From: Candidatus Heimdallarchaeota archaeon
GTDB taxonomy: Archaea; Asgardarchaeota; Heimdallarchaeia; Heimdallarchaeales; Heimdallarchaeaceae
Length of the DNA: 32,000 nucleotides
Assembly (NCBI GenBank): GCA_030668875.1
Contig: DAOVER010000020.1
Location: 1 to 32,000 of the forward strand
Direction of reading: 5' to 3'
The translations under genes were made by a program, and so were the position numbers. The notes under the pieces were generated by a model. That model made no database searches and was not told the origin of the DNA. It saw only the letters and a program-made list of their open reading frames with translations. Shown one piece after another: positions 4,973 to 20,230 of the stretch (the first letter of the stretch is position 1; every line of letters starts with the position of its first letter).

Positions 4973-5722
4973 CTAATCTCTCTCCAATATCATTTCACTA
5001 TCGTCTATGTGTAATTGCAAGCTATCCTCTTCTTTTTCTAGATGAAGCTTTCCTGAACTATTAATTCCTCGACAGAAATATTGATTGCCGTTTTTCAATT
5101 TGATTTCCTTATCAAAATAATTCAATCTGCTATTAAATAAATCAATGATGTTAGAAAAGCTGTTATTGGATATTTCTACAGCAAATCTGAGAAGAGTATC
5201 AGATAATTTAGAGATAAATTTGTCTATGGTTAGATTTTGCTTATTTTCCAATTGAAGACTAATTGAGTTGTTTTTGCATTCCTTTGCAATATCGTCTATT
5301 TTGGAAAATAGATTTACCCCGATCCCTATTAAAAGAAACAATTTATCTCCAGAAAGGTATTCAATAAGAATACCCCCAAGTTTTTTATTACGAAAATATA
5401 TGTCATTTGGCCATTTGGTTTTAATCTCTAATCTGGTCTCTATTTCCAATACTTGTTGTACTGCAACTGCTGCTGCATAATGCATGAACAGAATCTGTTG
5501 TTCCGTTGCCTGTTTTTCTAAAGGTAAAGCATATGTTCCATAGAACCCACCTTTTGGTGATGACCATGTATTCTCTCCTCGACCTTTGCCTGATTTTTGT
5601 TCATCAGCAACTACTAGAAAAGGCTGTTCCAATCCTTCTTTAACGAATAACAAAGCTTTGTCCATTGTTGAATTTAAAATAGGATAATGTATGATGTTTT
5701 TTATTTGAGTTATTGACACCAT
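4973..5722 (-). CDS. birA: Biotin--[acetyl-CoA carboxylase] ligase, no N-terminal HTH
   Basis: Motifs Q.SGKGRGENTWSSP, KWPND, KLGGILIE and GIGVN. Confidence 0.95.
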   Translation of the reverse strand: MVSITQIKNIIHYPILNSTMDKALLFVKEGLEQPFLVVADEQKSGKGRGENTWSSPKGGFYGTYALPLEKQATEQQILFMHYAAAVAVQQVLEIETRLEIKTKWPNDIYFRNKKLGGILIEYLSGDKLFLLIGIGVNLFSKIDDIAKECKNNSISLQLENKQNLTIDKFISKLSDTLLRFAVEISNNSFSNIIDLFNSRLNYFDKEIKLKNGNQYFCRGINSSGKLHLEKEEDSLQLHIDDSEMILERD

Positions 5723-5818
5723 TAACCGGCAGAATTAGAGGTTGGTTAAAAAACTTCCTTCCTTATATTCTCATAAAAGAAGATGGTTTTTTTATTTGAG
5801 TGAATACAATGAACTTTA

Positions 5819-7396
5819 ATGTATCAGAAACCTAAGAATATTAATTACAAAAGTAATGATAAGAAGTTTTCCAAGCTCAATGAATTACGTGAAAAAAGTC
5901 AAGAGGGCGGAGGACAAAAACGAGTAAAGAATCAACATCAAAAAGGCAAGTTAACTGCAAGAGAAAGAATAGAGTTGCTTGTCGATGAAGGTTCCTTTGT
6001 CGAAATCGATTCTTTCGTTACTCATCAAAATACTAAGTTCGAAATGTCCAAAACAAAACCATTGGGTGATGGCGTTGTTTCAGGATTTGCTACAGTCCAT
6101 GGACGTCCTATATATCTATACAGTCAAGATTTTACTGTTTTCGGAGGTAGTTTGGGTAAAGCACAAGCTAACAAGATATGTAAGATAATGGATCTTGCAA
6201 TTAAAACTGGAAACCCAATTATAGGTTTGTTAGATTCCGGTGGAGCAAGGATTCAAGAGGGAGTAGATTCCTTAGCAGGTTATGGAGACATTTTTTATCG
6301 TAACACTCAAGCATCAGGAGTCATTCCCCAAATATCAGTAATCTTGGGACCATGTGCGGGAGGGGCAGTTTATTCTCCAGCATTAACAGATTTCATTATA
6401 ATGAATAAAACCAATTCCTTCATGTTTGTGACTGGTCCTGAAGTAGTTAAAGAGGTAACAGGGGAGGAAGTATCATTTTATGATCTGGGAGGAAGTGAAA
6501 TTCATGGTCGTAAAACAGGTGTGAGTCATCTTGCAGGAGACAATGAAGAAGCTACATTAGAATTAACCAAGAAACTTCTTTCATATTTACCAGCTAACAA
6601 TCTAGATGACCCACCCTCAATTAATGTTGATCTAAAAGAATTAGAAGAGGTAAATTTGTCCAGTTATATTCCAGGGGAAGAGAATGAACCCTATAATATG
6701 AAATCTATCATAGACAAAGTCGTTGATCCTAATAGTTTTTTTGAGCTTTCACCAGAATGGTCTAAGAATATCATTATAGGTTTTGCACGATTTAATGGAA
6801 GTACAACAGGGATTATTGCAAACCAACCATTATTTCTAGGTGGAGCTATTGATTTTAATGCAGCGGATAAAGCTTCAAGATTCATAAGATTCTGTGATTC
6901 CTTTAACATTCCTATTATAACTTTTGTTGATGTTCCTGGTTTCCTTCCAGGAATTAAACAAGAACATGAAGGGATAATTAGGCACGGAGCTAAATTGCTT
7001 TATGCTTATTCTGAAGCAACTGTTCCTAAAATATCCATTATAGTAAGAAAAGCTTACGGTGGAGCATATATCGTAATGGGCTCCAAACATTTGGGAACAG
7101 ATATCAATTTAGCTTGGCCAACAGCTGAAATAGCTGTGATGGGTGCAGAAGCTGCATGTAGAATCATCTACCGTTCGAAGCTTAAAACTGTAGAAAATCC
7201 AGCTGAAACATTAAAGAAATTTACAAAAGATTTCAAGGAAGAATTTGCCAATCCATATCAAGCAGCAGAATTAGGGTATATCGATAGAGTGATTCTACCA
7301 GAAGAAACGAGGAAGGAAATTGTAAACGCTCTAAGCTTACTACATAACAAGAGAGAACAGACTCCAAAAAGAAAACATGGAATCCCTCCAGTTTGA
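5819..7396 (+). CDS. pccB: Acyl-CoA carboxylase carboxyltransferase subunit (PccB-type fused CT)
   Basis: Motifs GKLTARERI, GGARIQEG, GPCAGGAVY, DVPGFLPG..QE..GIIRHGAK, RKAYGGAY and KHG..P at the C-terminus. Confidence 0.95.
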   Translation: MYQKPKNINYKSNDKKFSKLNELREKSQEGGGQKRVKNQHQKGKLTARERIELLVDEGSFVEIDSFVTHQNTKFEMSKTKPLGDGVVSGFATVHGRPIYLYSQDFTVFGGSLGKAQANKICKIMDLAIKTGNPIIGLLDSGGARIQEGVDSLAGYGDIFYRNTQASGVIPQISVILGPCAGGAVYSPALTDFIIMNKTNSFMFVTGPEVVKEVTGEEVSFYDLGGSEIHGRKTGVSHLAGDNEEATLELTKKLLSYLPANNLDDPPSINVDLKELEEVNLSSYIPGEENEPYNMKSIIDKVVDPNSFFELSPEWSKNIIIGFARFNGSTTGIIANQPLFLGGAIDFNAADKASRFIRFCDSFNIPIITFVDVPGFLPGIKQEHEGIIRHGAKLLYAYSEATVPKISIIVRKAYGGAYIVMGSKHLGTDINLAWPTAEIAVMGAEAACRIIYRSKLKTVENPAETLKKFTKDFKEEFANPYQAAELGYIDRVILPEETRKEIVNALSLLHNKREQTPKRKHGIPPV

Positions 7397-7406
7397 AGGT
7401 GATAAA

Positions 7407-18226: not shown

Positions 18227-18228
18227 AA

Positions 18229-18708
18229 TCACTTTACTTCAATATCAACAAGGTTCTGATCTTGCTTAACAGTTGTATTTACAGTTACATGAATTTTGGA
18301 GACAACTCCGTCAACTGTTGAAAATATCCTATTTCTCATTTTCATTGCTTCTAAAATTATTAATTCTTGGTTTTTAGTTACAGAATCATTCTCTTTAACC
18401 AGTATTTGAATGATTTTTCCAGGAATTGGAGCAGTAATTTTCTTGCTTTTTTCCCTTTCTAAAAATTCTTCTCTAACTTCAATGGGTATATGCGGTTTTA
18501 CTTCAATTTTTGCTTCCTCTCCATCAATATGAAATTCCCCATCTTTTACCTCTACCGTGAAGGGCTGTCTATCGACTATAACCTTGTAAATGTTTTTCAC
18601 TCCATAAGTTACATTTGTTGTATAAATCTGCCCATCAATTAATATCTTGCCCTCATTAATTGTTTCTATTATGTATTCTCTCCCTCGATAAATTACTTTC
18701 TTTTTCAT
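18229..18708 (-). CDS. accB: Biotin carboxyl carrier protein
   Basis: APIPGKI and EAMKM biotinylation motif, with a GAGGA SD upstream. Confidence 0.95.
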   Translation of the reverse strand: MKKKVIYRGREYIIETINEGKILIDGQIYTTNVTYGVKNIYKVIVDRQPFTVEVKDGEFHIDGEEAKIEVKPHIPIEVREEFLEREKSKKITAPIPGKIIQILVKENDSVTKNQELIILEAMKMRNRIFSTVDGVVSKIHVTVNTTVKQDQNLVDIEVK

Positions 18709-18730
18709 AATTATTCCTCAGAAATGGTAA

Positions 18731-20230
18731 CTAACGATTATCGTGTTGTTCGAGTTTACTCTGCTGTTTCCATCGATTGTTCATTGTTCTTTTCTGTTGA
18801 ATATGCATTTGGAAAGTGTCAAGTTTTTTCTTGTGTTTTTCATAAACAGAATAAACAGCGGCAAGTTTTGATTTCTCATAATTAGCTAAAATTAGTTGGA
18901 TGTTGTTTCTCTCAAGGAAATCTGTTGTAAGGTCTCTTATATTAAACTCCTCTGTCTCTAATATTGCACGATGTAGACCTATGTTTGTTATAAGCCCTGT
19001 TATGGACAATTCTTTCAGGGCAAGCTGAGATCGCTCTATGGTCTCTTTCCTATTTTCTCCCCAAACAATCAATTTGCCAATCAAGGAATCAAATTTATCA
19101 GTAACTTTTGATGATGGTGTTACGAAAGTATCAAATCGAACAAAATTACCTCCAGGAATTCGAAGATCAGTTATGGTTCCTGACTGAGGATAAAATGAGC
19201 ATATAGGATCTTCAGCATTAATTCGAAATTCAATAGCATGCCCTCGGAATTCAATTTCTTCTTGTTTATATGCCAATTTTTCGCCTGTAGCAATTCTCAA
19301 TTGCTGAGTTACAATATCTATCCCTGTAATCATTTCTGTAACAGGATGTTCAACTTGAATCCTAGGATTGATTTCATTAAAAAGAACCTCTCCATGTTTC
19401 CAAAGAAATTCAGCAGTACCAGCATTAGAATACGAAATGTTTCTAGCCAAATTACAAACTCTTTCACCAAGATCTTCTCTAAGTTCCTCTGAAAGGAAGG
19501 AAGGTGCTTCTTCTATGACTTTTTGATGCATCCTCTGTATTGTACACTCCCTGTCTCCTAAATGAATCGTGTTTCCATAATTATCTGCTATGAACTGAAT
19601 CTCGATGTGTCTTGGGGCAGATATGTATTTTTCAATGAACACTTCTTTCCGTCCAAAGAACTGTTCCGAAATTGTTTGGCAACCCATTAAACTTATCTCA
19701 AGTGTTTCATGAGATTTAACAATTTCCATACCTCTTCCTCCGCCACCAAAAGCAGATTTTATTATTATAGGATATCCAATTTCAGATACTACTTCTTCTG
19801 CTTCTTCGAGAGAATTTACATATCCTACAGATCCTGGAATTGTCGGAATTCCTACTTCTTTAGCATATTGTTTAGCTTTTATCTTATCTCCCAGATTTTC
19901 TATGATTGTAGAGGAAGGACCGATAAAAATCAAACCATTTTTCTCGACATTTTTAGCAAACTCTGAACTCTCACTTAAAAAACCATAACCAGGATGAATA
20001 GCATCTGCTCCAGATTTTAAAGCTATTTCAATGATTTTTTTAATATTCAAATAGGTTTCTTGTACTGTGCCATCTCCCAGAGAGTAGGCTTCATCTGCCA
20101 TCTTTACATGTTGAGATGTTGATTCACTATCTATGAAAATTGCAACAGCTTTCATGTTCAAAAGTTGGCAAGATCGAATGATTCGTAGAGCAATCTCTCC
20201 TCGATTTGCTATAAGCACAGTAACAGGCAT
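18731..20230 (-). CDS. accC: Biotin carboxylase subunit (ATP-grasp)
   Basis: Motifs VLIANRGEIA, HPGYGFLSE, GGGGRGM, RECTIQR.HQK and E.NPRIQVEH. Confidence 0.97.
   Translation of the reverse strand: MPVTVLIANRGEIALRIIRSCQLLNMKAVAIFIDSESTSQHVKMADEAYSLGDGTVQETYLNIKKIIEIALKSGADAIHPGYGFLSESSEFAKNVEKNGLIFIGPSSTIIENLGDKIKAKQYAKEVGIPTIPGSVGYVNSLEEAEEVVSEIGYPIIIKSAFGGGGRGMEIVKSHETLEISLMGCQTISEQFFGRKEVFIEKYISAPRHIEIQFIADNYGNTIHLGDRECTIQRMHQKVIEEAPSFLSEELREDLGERVCNLARNISYSNAGTAEFLWKHGEVLFNEINPRIQVEHPVTEMITGIDIVTQQLRIATGEKLAYKQEEIEFRGHAIEFRINAEDPICSFYPQSGTITDLRIPGGNFVRFDTFVTPSSKVTDKFDSLIGKLIVWGENRKETIERSQLALKELSITGLITNIGLHRAILETEEFNIRDLTTDFLERNNIQLILANYEKSKLAAVYSVYEKHKKKLDTFQMHIQQKRTMNNRWKQQSKLEQHDNR

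Follow-up and report, generated by a model that had tools for sequence, protein, structure and literature searches.

How eukaryotes, given their archaeal host lineage, acquired membranes of fatty-acid esters has long been an open question, and it is touched by a cluster of six genes in the Asgard archaeon Candidatus Heimdallarchaeota (contig DAOVER010000020.1): does an archaeon build fatty acyl chains on a carrier protein? The stretch that was analysed, hereafter the window, comprises 32,000 nt, and coordinates are positions in it unless another contig is named. The cluster (4973-20230) encodes a single megasynthase together with the enzymes that would supply its substrate. It represents a complete, conserved, carrier-dependent chain-building machinery, which is inherited vertically within Asgard archaea and is near-universal in the order of the Heimdallarchaeaceae. 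According to textbooks and recent papers, fatty acid synthases I and II, acyl carrier protein and its synthase are all missing from archaea. The reading favoured here, with a probability of about 0.5, is that of a native, functional Asgard cluster which makes malonyl-CoA and, on one protein, long and essentially saturated fatty acyl chains.

The genes were mapped by a listing of open reading frames (ORFs) and by profile searches:

4973-5722, minus strand: BirA-type biotin-protein ligase, catalytic type without repressor domain (PF03099, 5.5e-19; TIGR00121, 120 bits against a cut-off of 83)
5723-5818: divergent intergenic region between birA and the carboxyltransferase gene, AT-rich with TATA-like runs (read directly from the sequence)
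5819-7396, plus strand: 12S-type carboxyltransferase, single-chain, PccB/AccD5/MmdA type, an acyl-CoA carboxylase subunit (PF01039, 1.7e-187)
7407-17465, plus strand: megasynthase, iterative type I, 3352 aa (Pfam and NCBIfam domain matches; no internal stop codons)
17471-18226, plus strand: alpha/beta hydrolase with GESFG serine, Asp and His (PF12146, PF00326 and others)
18229-18708, minus strand: biotin carboxyl carrier protein (BCCP) with EAMKM biotinylation motif (PF00364, 5.9e-18)
18731-20230, minus strand: biotin carboxylase, AccC (PF02786, PF00289, PF02785; NF006406, 599 bits against a cut-off of 739)
20249-20261, minus strand: TATA-like box TTTATATAAA, around 26 nt upstream of the accC ATG (read directly from the sequence)

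All six genes were found at the positions and on the strands given in a preliminary description of this DNA, including the divergence of birA and the convergence on accB-accC, and the two signals reported there, GGTGA at 7398 ahead of the megasynthase and a TATA-like box before accC, are present as well. The megasynthase frame is open from an in-frame ATG at 7377 and stops at 17465; its start is likely the ATG at 7407, which follows GGTGA at 7398-7402 and gives the length of 3352 aa. The box before accC is consistent with a leaderless archaeal transcript. Because the carboxyltransferase and megasynthase genes are separated by 10 nt only, and the megasynthase and hydrolase genes by 5 nt, these three fit a single plus-strand operon. 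The hydrolase and BCCP genes are convergent, with 2 nt between their ends.

Biotin carboxylase, BCCP with its EAMKM motif and 12S carboxyltransferase together make up the three subunits of a biotin-dependent acyl-CoA carboxylase (ACC), the carboxyltransferase scoring 763 bits with TIGR01117, i.e., under the cut-off of 999. The malonyl-type motifs of the acyltransferase (see below) point to the malonyl-CoA route as the one that this carboxylase would serve. The position of birA is kept in the Heimdall, Hod, Prometh and Loki loci, and the hydrolase is kept directly 3' of the megasynthase in the Heimdall, Hod and Loki loci. Among solved structures, esterases and AntI, an enzyme of polyketide processing, come closest to the hydrolase, which is regarded as a candidate chain-release enzyme. 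In some congeners, as seen in the loci L013 (G001:C9, 5084-8261) and L022 (G022:C74, 2807-5979), an extra pair of carboxyltransferase and biotin carboxylase genes is situated between birA and the carboxyltransferase of the cluster.

The domains of the megasynthase are listed below. Residue numbers are those of the translation P0001, which is counted from the ATG at 7377, 10 residues ahead of the start at 7407; all domains lie on the plus strand:

7407-8381, plus strand: N-terminal degenerate NMO/FabK-like barrel, resembling an enoyl reductase (ER), residues 1-335 (PF03060, 5.5e-5, 23 bits, below cut-off)
8385-9260, plus strand: ER of the FabK/PfaD FMN TIM-barrel type, residues 337-628 (PF03060, 1.4e-15; TIGR03151 FabK, 1.3e-29)
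9534-10946, plus strand: first ketosynthase (KS1), residues 720-1190 (PF00109, PF02801), with Cys928, His1062 and His1101
11025-11942, plus strand: acyltransferase (AT), malonyl type, residues 1217-1522 (PF00698, 1.7e-49; FabD TIGR00128, 1.1e-70)
12234-13796, plus strand: second ketosynthase (KS'), residues around 1620-2140, with Cys1832-His1980-His2020 intact, by motif
13833-14036, plus strand: carrier domain 1 (PF00550), with Thr2183 (codon 13923-13925) in LGVDTV
14118-14321, plus strand: carrier domain 2 (PF00550, 6.5e-14), with Thr2278 (codon 14208-14210) in LGIDTI
15282-15695, plus strand: catalytic subdomain of the ketoreductase (KR), residues 2636-2773 (PF08659, 1.1e-27), with Tyr2743 and Asn2747
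15945-16694, plus strand: dehydratase (DH) of the double-hotdog type of polyketide synthases (PKS), residues 2857-3106 (PF21089, PF14765), with His2870
16875-17444, plus strand: fused Sfp-type 4'-phosphopantetheinyl transferase (PPTase), residues 3167-3356 (PF01648, 5.9e-20; PF22624)

The activities named in the preliminary description (KS, AT, KR, DH, ER, carrier and PPTase) each correspond to a domain, but the second complete KS, the N-terminal ER-like barrel and the Thr of the carriers had been missed there. The AT exhibits GHSLG with Ser1316, followed by Arg1341 and an xAFH motif with His1422. A structural subdomain of around 300 aa precedes the catalytic subdomain of the KR, the matches of which in the Protein Data Bank (PDB) are PKS KR domains. 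The PPTase possesses both lobes of the Sfp type (PF22624 and PF01648) and the motifs GxDxE (GVDIE, Asp3256/Glu3258) and WxxKE(A/S)xxK (WTIKESVSK, Glu3295), all of them invariant, and it is matched by Sfp in the PDB. Domain searches found neither a FabA-type isomerising DH nor a thioesterase domain in the megasynthase. Since its Cys-His-His triad is intact, KS' is, as judged from these residues, no chain-length factor.

In an alignment of 52 full-length homologues from the Asgard clade, both KS triads, Ser/Arg/His of the AT, Tyr/Asn of the KR, His of the DH, His480 in the GGH motif of the ER, and Asp/Glu/Glu of the PPTase are invariant. Compared to the closest public ortholog (L041, 87% identity), dN/dS amounts to 0.11 over the megasynthase and to between 0.06 and 0.17 in its domains (0.16 in the N-terminal barrel, 0.10 in the carrier region), against 0.37 in an inter-domain linker. 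The megasynthase is thus under purifying selection domain by domain. Sequence searches of the PDB yielded generic PKS and fatty acid synthase (FAS) domains only and no family-specific structure; the top match of the KS-AT-KS' part, a PKS chain with two KS domains, was set aside, as it matches through having two such domains.

These domains suggest the following course of synthesis. BirA would biotinylate the BCCP, and biotin carboxylase, BCCP and 12S carboxyltransferase would then carboxylate acetyl-CoA. The two carriers would be primed by the C-terminal PPTase domain, apparently on Thr, and the AT would load malonyl units, the malonyl type of its motifs arguing for malonyl and not methylmalonyl as the extender. 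KS and KS' would condense these iteratively, each beta-keto group being fully reduced by the KR, the PKS-type DH and the FabK-type ER, and the chain is expected to be saturated because no isomerising DH is present. The finished chain would be taken off the carrier by the adjoining alpha/beta hydrolase, most simply as free acid. Its most likely further fate would be the conversion to acyl-phosphate by DegV and Dak2-only kinases, from which PlsY would esterify the chain to glycerol phosphate; as no PlsX was found in the genome, this is the simplest route. Bacterial PlsY is known to accept both stereoisomers of glycerol phosphate, G1P and G3P (PMC13400652).

Whether the cluster belongs to an archaeon at all has to be considered, since it could also be bacterial DNA that ended up in an archaeal genome through faulty assembly or binning, or that was transferred very recently. 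This family of synthases is indeed far commoner in bacteria, and two homologues within the Heimdall clade are labelled Zixibacteria and Bathyarchaeia. Against this, read depth stays uniform between the megasynthase and NreA in four marine-sediment runs (of one study), the GC content is flat at around 0.33 over the whole window, and no bacterial-genome locus falls inside the 28-row archaeal clade of the KS' tree. A single contig of 22.5 kb spans positions 12100-22670, and the homologues with 84-91% identity come from Heimdallarchaeaceae/Heimdallarchaeota metagenome-assembled genomes (MAGs). The gene order phosphatase-birA-carboxyltransferase-synthase-hydrolase-BCCP-biotin carboxylase-AlkZ-NreA is kept in four congeners, the synthases of which are only 56-58% identical, and the window differs from them only by insertions (a pair of B12-binding/MutE-like and octopine-dehydrogenase-like genes; two TldD/PmbA genes with FeoAB). 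The layout with birA on the minus strand, carboxyltransferase, synthase and hydrolase on the plus strand, and BCCP and biotin carboxylase on the minus strand is also found in the closed chromosome of Ca. Heimdallarchaeum aukensis (3.08 Mb), one of the closed Heimdallarchaeum chromosomes in which the cluster is present, in a Hodarchaeota MAG and on a Lokiarchaeota contig of 4.36 Mb, where it lies beside the genes of the exosome, L37ae (a ribosomal protein) and Pcc1.

A bacterial origin of this DNA by contamination, chimerism or recent transfer was rejected on account of depth, GC content, synteny, closed chromosomes and the tree, and its probability is considered negligible. The archaeal (Asgard) host, the absence of a chimeric joint in the contig and the conserved synteny in related genomes, all of which had been proposed or singled out for checking before, are thereby borne out. 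Of the other genomes of the genus, 19 of 23 yielded the KS-AT region, as did 33 of 39 genomes of the order; those without it are 68-87% complete. A member of the family from the original Lokiarchaeum GC14_75 has been deposited in 2015 as 'Pks15/1' (KKK41857.1).

The family was defined operationally by the KS' motifs NTKG[FY]TGH and F[VM]SHETY[TS]P and by carriers reading LG[IV]DT[VI], and the megasynthase of the window exhibits all of these; it is thus a Thr-carrier KS-AT-KS' synthase. The KS' motifs occur in at least 600 stretches of species-representative genomes, mostly of bacteria (Acidobacteriota, Myxococcota, Actinomycetota, Chloroflexota, Calditrichota, Bacteroidota, Desulfobacterota and others), and among archaea in Heimdall, Hod and Prometh lineages and in Thermoplasmatota. 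In the KS' trees, a single clade (SH-aLRT 99) unites all Asgard rows with two from Thermoplasmatota and with three whose bin labels are doubtful, and the KS1 subtree exhibits the same grouping. Desulfomonilaceae sequences with the full fusion from ER to PPTase are weakly supported (87) neighbours of the archaeal clade. When KS1 paralogues were used to root the tree of KS', the root came to lie on a Thermoplasmatota group, over a branch of around 10 changes per site; because this root is unreliable, no direction of transfer between bacteria and archaea was read from it.

Homologues labelled Zixibacteria, Bathyarchaeia and Methanobacteriota nest in Heimdall/Kari clades, and a Hodarchaeota-labelled copy nests in a Promethearchaeota clade (P0050, P0055, P0064; L048/P0030); these are probably errors of binning or labelling, or transfers among archaea. 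Concerning the neighbouring genes, the synthase is accompanied by the full ACC and BirA in loci of the Heimdall, Hod, Prometh and Loki lineages and by part of them in Thermoplasmatota loci. Bacterial loci contain at most a biotin carboxylase-like gene downstream of the synthase (25 of 70 loci). This ATP-grasp gene (bacterial loci L058-L119) is 35-40% identical to AccC and lies within around 3-5 kb downstream of the KS' match, around 5.5-7.5 kb after the KS' start; no carboxyltransferase or BCCP was found near the bacterial copies.

A peculiarity of the family is the residue to which phosphopantetheine would be attached. Both carriers read LG(V/I)DT(V/I), and in the alignment this Thr takes the place of the Ser on which the PigH tandem carriers and AcpM bear phosphopantetheine. 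Both domains pass PF00550, yet they possess Thr instead of the defining Ser (DSL/DSI). At the two sites, Thr is found in 51 and 52 of the 52 Asgard homologues, and it is also found at the attachment site in nearly all of the best 120 homologues. Thr carriers occur as well in cultured Amycolatopsis and Spirillospora and in members with an unfused PPTase. Close relatives have either Ser or Thr at this position (one Thr and two Ser in Ca. H. aukensis), which argues that the hydroxyl there is used.

It might be objected that Thr carriers cannot be primed, so that the megasynthase would be a relic or would work independently of a carrier. We know of no characterised carrier with Thr as its phosphopantetheine site, and no description of a Thr-linked phosphopantetheine was found in the open-access literature. 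Such a loss of function is nevertheless very improbable, given that 239 of the 243 carrier motifs in 80 representative genomes of many bacterial phyla and archaea contain Thr (the other four Ser), that the carrier region is constrained (dN/dS as given above), that the alternation with Ser is expected if the hydroxyl matters, and that the PPTase is retained, either fused or adjacent. If it is modified, the family-wide Thr would add a new form to a post-translational modification that is universal, and this could be studied in the cultured actinomycetes that possess members of the family, such as Amycolatopsis sp. NPDC021455 and Spirillospora sp. NPDC048911.

As to the fate of the chains, the remaining genome has to be taken into account. 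The host genome (G000; 3.23 Mb, 92% complete) contains no PPTase, credible carrier domain or KS other than those found in the cluster, in agreement with the earlier suggestion that it is self-contained; a third PF00550 match (C29:35613-35864, 83 aa) was not counted as a carrier, as it has Lys at the attachment position and reaches 22 bits only. Three PlsY genes are situated on contigs other than that of the cluster, one of them above the equivalog cut-off of TIGR00023. Furthermore, 15 genes encode DegV proteins (FakB-type, fatty-acid-binding), with a group of three on C34, and two encode Dak2-only proteins, 214-227 aa in length (on C51 and C85). Fifteen DegV genes are a large expansion for an archaeal genome of 3.2 Mb. 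Neither Dak1 nor PlsX nor a PF01553 acyltransferase (PlsC) was found in this genome. Heimdallarchaeum likewise lacks PlsC according to Wu et al., who do not mention the synthase. Of the archaeal lipid genes, glycerol-1-phosphate dehydrogenase (G1PDH; 405 bits against a cut-off of 413), a UbiA protein similar to digeranylgeranylglyceryl phosphate synthase (DGGGPS), encoded at C32:32867-33799, and CarS are retained. Positions of the genes present in several copies are:

C34:16361-21824, C90:15672-16499 and C29:19998-20828: DegV genes (examples)
C13:27231-27728, C53:23957-24481 and C29:69185-69712: three CarS-like genes (CDP-archaeol synthase family)

Geranylgeranylglyceryl phosphate synthase (GGGPS; PF01884) was found neither in G000 nor in 22 of the 24 genomes of the genus, nor in two further carriers of the megasynthase, namely the closed genome of Ca. 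H. aukensis and the genome with the 4.36-Mb Loki contig. A tblastn search of G000 with the one strong GGGPS of the genus (from G020) likewise yielded nothing. The distribution was counted more widely in one fixed sample of 121 Asgard genomes, each at least 80% complete, with E below 1e-40 defining a canonical GGGPS. The megasynthase is found in 20 of these genomes, i.e., in every sampled family of the class to which the window belongs, f5 excepted, and in two Loki-type families (f24, two of two genomes; f13, one of 20). A canonical GGGPS is present in two of the 20 megasynthase-positive genomes versus 89 of the 101 negative ones; as the genomes are related, this pattern corresponds to about two or three lineages, and a non-canonical GGGPS in the positive genomes is conceivable. 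Family f5 exhibits only weak, divergent PcrB-like matches. CarS is present in 115 of the 121 genomes, mostly in one or two copies.

PlsY occurs in every megasynthase-positive family of the window's class. In one closed Heimdallarchaeum genome (G065), a PlsY paralogue is located at the edge of the cluster, 38 bp from birA (L124:7776-8504), and in a second one (G104) a PlsY match (C1:564206-564820) lies around 8 kb upstream of the KS' of the synthase. In f13 genomes (e.g., G111:C106:5555-8769), PlsY domains are situated in frames of around 405-419 aa, hence fused, with up to three in tandem.

Several observations weigh against fatty acyl chains for membrane lipids as the product. Neither a product nor a transcript nor a modified carrier is on record, and public runs list no RNA data for the megasynthase. 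The DH is of the PKS type. Without a PlsC, a classical diacyl lipid could not be completed in G000, where, moreover, the Dak2, DegV and PlsY genes are scattered and unclustered and the archaeal lipid genes named above are partly retained; f24 possesses the synthase without PlsY. To this the missing precedent for Thr as attachment site has to be added. Among described systems, the nearest are 'secondary lipid' synthases, and those of their kin that have been characterised produce special long chains and not bulk fatty acids (PMC3098273). The lipids of cultured Lokiarchaeia, strains that may or may not carry the megasynthase, are reported to be isoprenoid only (as cited in PMC13400652).

A native and active cluster might therefore, by the same chemistry, make a specialised 'secondary' lipid or polyketide instead of acyl chains for membrane glycerolipids, e.g., a very long glycolipid chain, a hydrocarbon, a wax, or a storage or signalling compound, whereas PlsY and DegV would serve scavenged fatty acids. 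This is a serious possibility, although less probable than the favoured reading. The best named matches of the megasynthase are PfaA (TIGR02813) and PKS models, its carriers stand in tandem, the nearest described clusters are the uncharacterised Type R/S synthases of Shulse and Allen, the occurrence in Loki-type families is patchy, and the solved relatives of the hydrolase include AntI, which tailors polyketides; the PKS-type DH, the retention of CarS, G1PDH and the DGGGPS-like gene, and the lack of PlsY in f24 fit such a product, too. A secondary product is less easily reconciled with a gene that is near-universal and single-copy in the window's order and fixed in its chromosomal position, with the dedicated ACC and BirA kept alongside, and with a full KR-DH-ER set that is accompanied neither by a FabA-type DH nor by tailoring genes in the conserved cluster. 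PlsY next to the cluster in Heimdallarchaeum and the distribution inverse to that of canonical GGGPS argue in the same direction, i.e., for acyl chains of membrane glycerolipids.

If fatty acyl chains are made, they might enter hybrid acyl/isoprenoid phospholipids in the megasynthase-bearing Asgard archaea: GGGPS would have been lost, PlsY would transfer the acyl chain made by the megasynthase to glycerol phosphate as the first chain, from acyl-phosphate formed out of the free acid by a DegV/Dak2 kinase, and the second chain, an isoprenoid, and the CDP handle for the head group would come from the DGGGPS-like enzyme and CarS. This fits the gene pattern, since PlsY was found without PlsC and the DGGGPS-like gene without GGGPS, and G1PDH and CarS are kept; as a specific proposal it is nonetheless considered unlikely. 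If this holds, the closest relatives of eukaryotes would harbour a living intermediate between the two sides of the lipid divide.

A "novel PKS" was noted for Heimdallarchaeota in a survey of 2020, and surveys of biosynthetic gene clusters give generic PKS counts for Asgardarchaeota; beyond such mentions, no treatment of the Asgard megasynthase was found in the open-access literature. New are the joint presence of the synthase with PlsY, DegV and Dak2-only genes in one genome, the adjacency of PlsY and the cluster in Heimdallarchaeum, and the inverse distribution with GGGPS. With PlsY, many DegV genes and no recognisable GGGPS in megasynthase genomes, the lipid question is open to experiment: the membrane lipids of the closest relatives of eukaryotes, and with them the lipid divide, can now be tested with around 15 kb of DNA that can be cloned and with Heimdallarchaeum enrichments that already exist.

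Some further genes of the window lie outside the cluster. In the left flank (1406-4616), two probable secreted or surface proteins are encoded, a PPC-domain protein of 549 aa and a purple-acid-phosphatase/metallophosphoesterase with a CARDB domain (516 aa), which is syntenic in the congeners. Between accC and AlkZ (20419-23056, minus strand), a B12-binding/MutE-like gene (509 aa) overlaps an octopine/nopaline-dehydrogenase-like gene (379 aa). The B12-binding gene also occurs in L041, the nearest relative, where the contig breaks off within around 240 bp after it, and the pair is absent from that spot in the four other congeners. Between AlkZ and NreA (24734-30332, minus strand), two overlapping TldD/PmbA ORFs (24734-26212 and 26121-27527) are followed by FeoB and a DtxR-FeoA fusion; this block is absent at that position in the four congeners examined.

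Among described systems, the organization of the megasynthase comes closest to that of the Type R and Type S secondary lipid synthases, followed by PfaA. Type R synthases are PfaA-like single genes of the order KS-MAT-'CLF'-ACPn-KR (malonyl acyltransferase, MAT; chain-length factor, CLF; acyl carrier protein, ACP) with a PPTase, sometimes beside an acetyl-CoA carboxylase gene and with unknown product (PMC3098273). The core order KS-AT-KS'-ACP-KR is common to both, and loci from other genomes of Acidobacteriota and Chloroflexota, phyla in which Type R synthases occur, share KS' motifs, Thr carriers and the tree with the Asgard synthases. There are, however, differences: the position of the 'CLF' keeps its active-site Cys in the megasynthase and is thus a second KS, two carriers are found instead of three to six, and ER, DH and PPTase are fused in the same chain, whereas the PPTase of Type R is a separate gene. 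A complete ACC and BirA are linked here, in distinction from both Type R and Type S, and the host is an archaeon, whereas archaea are not mentioned in PMC3098273. Type S of Desulfobacterium autotrophicum has been proposed to be the core fatty acid synthase of that organism (Shulse and Allen 2011, PLoS One 6:e20146, PMC3098273).

Concerning PfaA, its model TIGR02813 is the best-scoring named model (866.4 bits in four stretches); as this is below the cut-off of 1010, the megasynthase is not assigned to PfaA. KS-AT, tandem carriers of the LGIDxI type, KR, PKS-type DH and PfaD/FabK-type ER are shared. In contrast to PfaA systems, ER and PPTase are fused, the carriers possess Thr instead of Ser, and the conserved cluster contains neither PfaB/PfaC partner genes nor FabA-type DH domains, so that there is no obvious way to cis double bonds. 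The enediyne synthases (PKSE) are iterative type I enzymes of the order KS-AT-ACP-KR-DH-PPTase, which prime themselves and make a polyene; the megasynthase resembles them in its C-terminal arrangement KR-DH-PPTase. To our knowledge, PKSE have no ER, second KS or linked carboxylase, unlike the cluster described here.

With the FakA/FakB-PlsY system of Firmicutes, the genome shares the gene pattern of the acyl-phosphate route (DegV, Dak2-domain proteins and PlsY, with no PlsX found). It differs in the expansion of DegV to 15 copies and in the dispersal of the genes. FakA is much longer than the Dak2-only proteins of 214-227 aa, which may lack its other domains. The megasynthase is not a member of the type I FAS of animals, fungi or mycobacteria, differing in its NMO/FabK-type ER, its Thr carriers and the lack of a thioesterase domain, but it may work like a FAS.

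Another archaeal route has been proposed for Sulfolobus acidocaldarius, namely an ACP-independent fatty acid synthase complex (bioRxiv 10.1101/2024.07.05.601840). It employs CoA thioesters, a thiolase/DUF35 pair and separate SDR (short-chain dehydrogenase/reductase), MaoC and MDR (medium-chain dehydrogenase/reductase) enzymes, without carrier or PPTase, and thus differs from the carrier-dependent machinery of the Asgard cluster. In the same study, archaea are stated to lack FAS I, FAS II and, nearly always, ACP and ACP synthase (bioRxiv 10.1101/2024.07.05.601840). The Asgard megasynthase cluster constitutes an exception to this statement.

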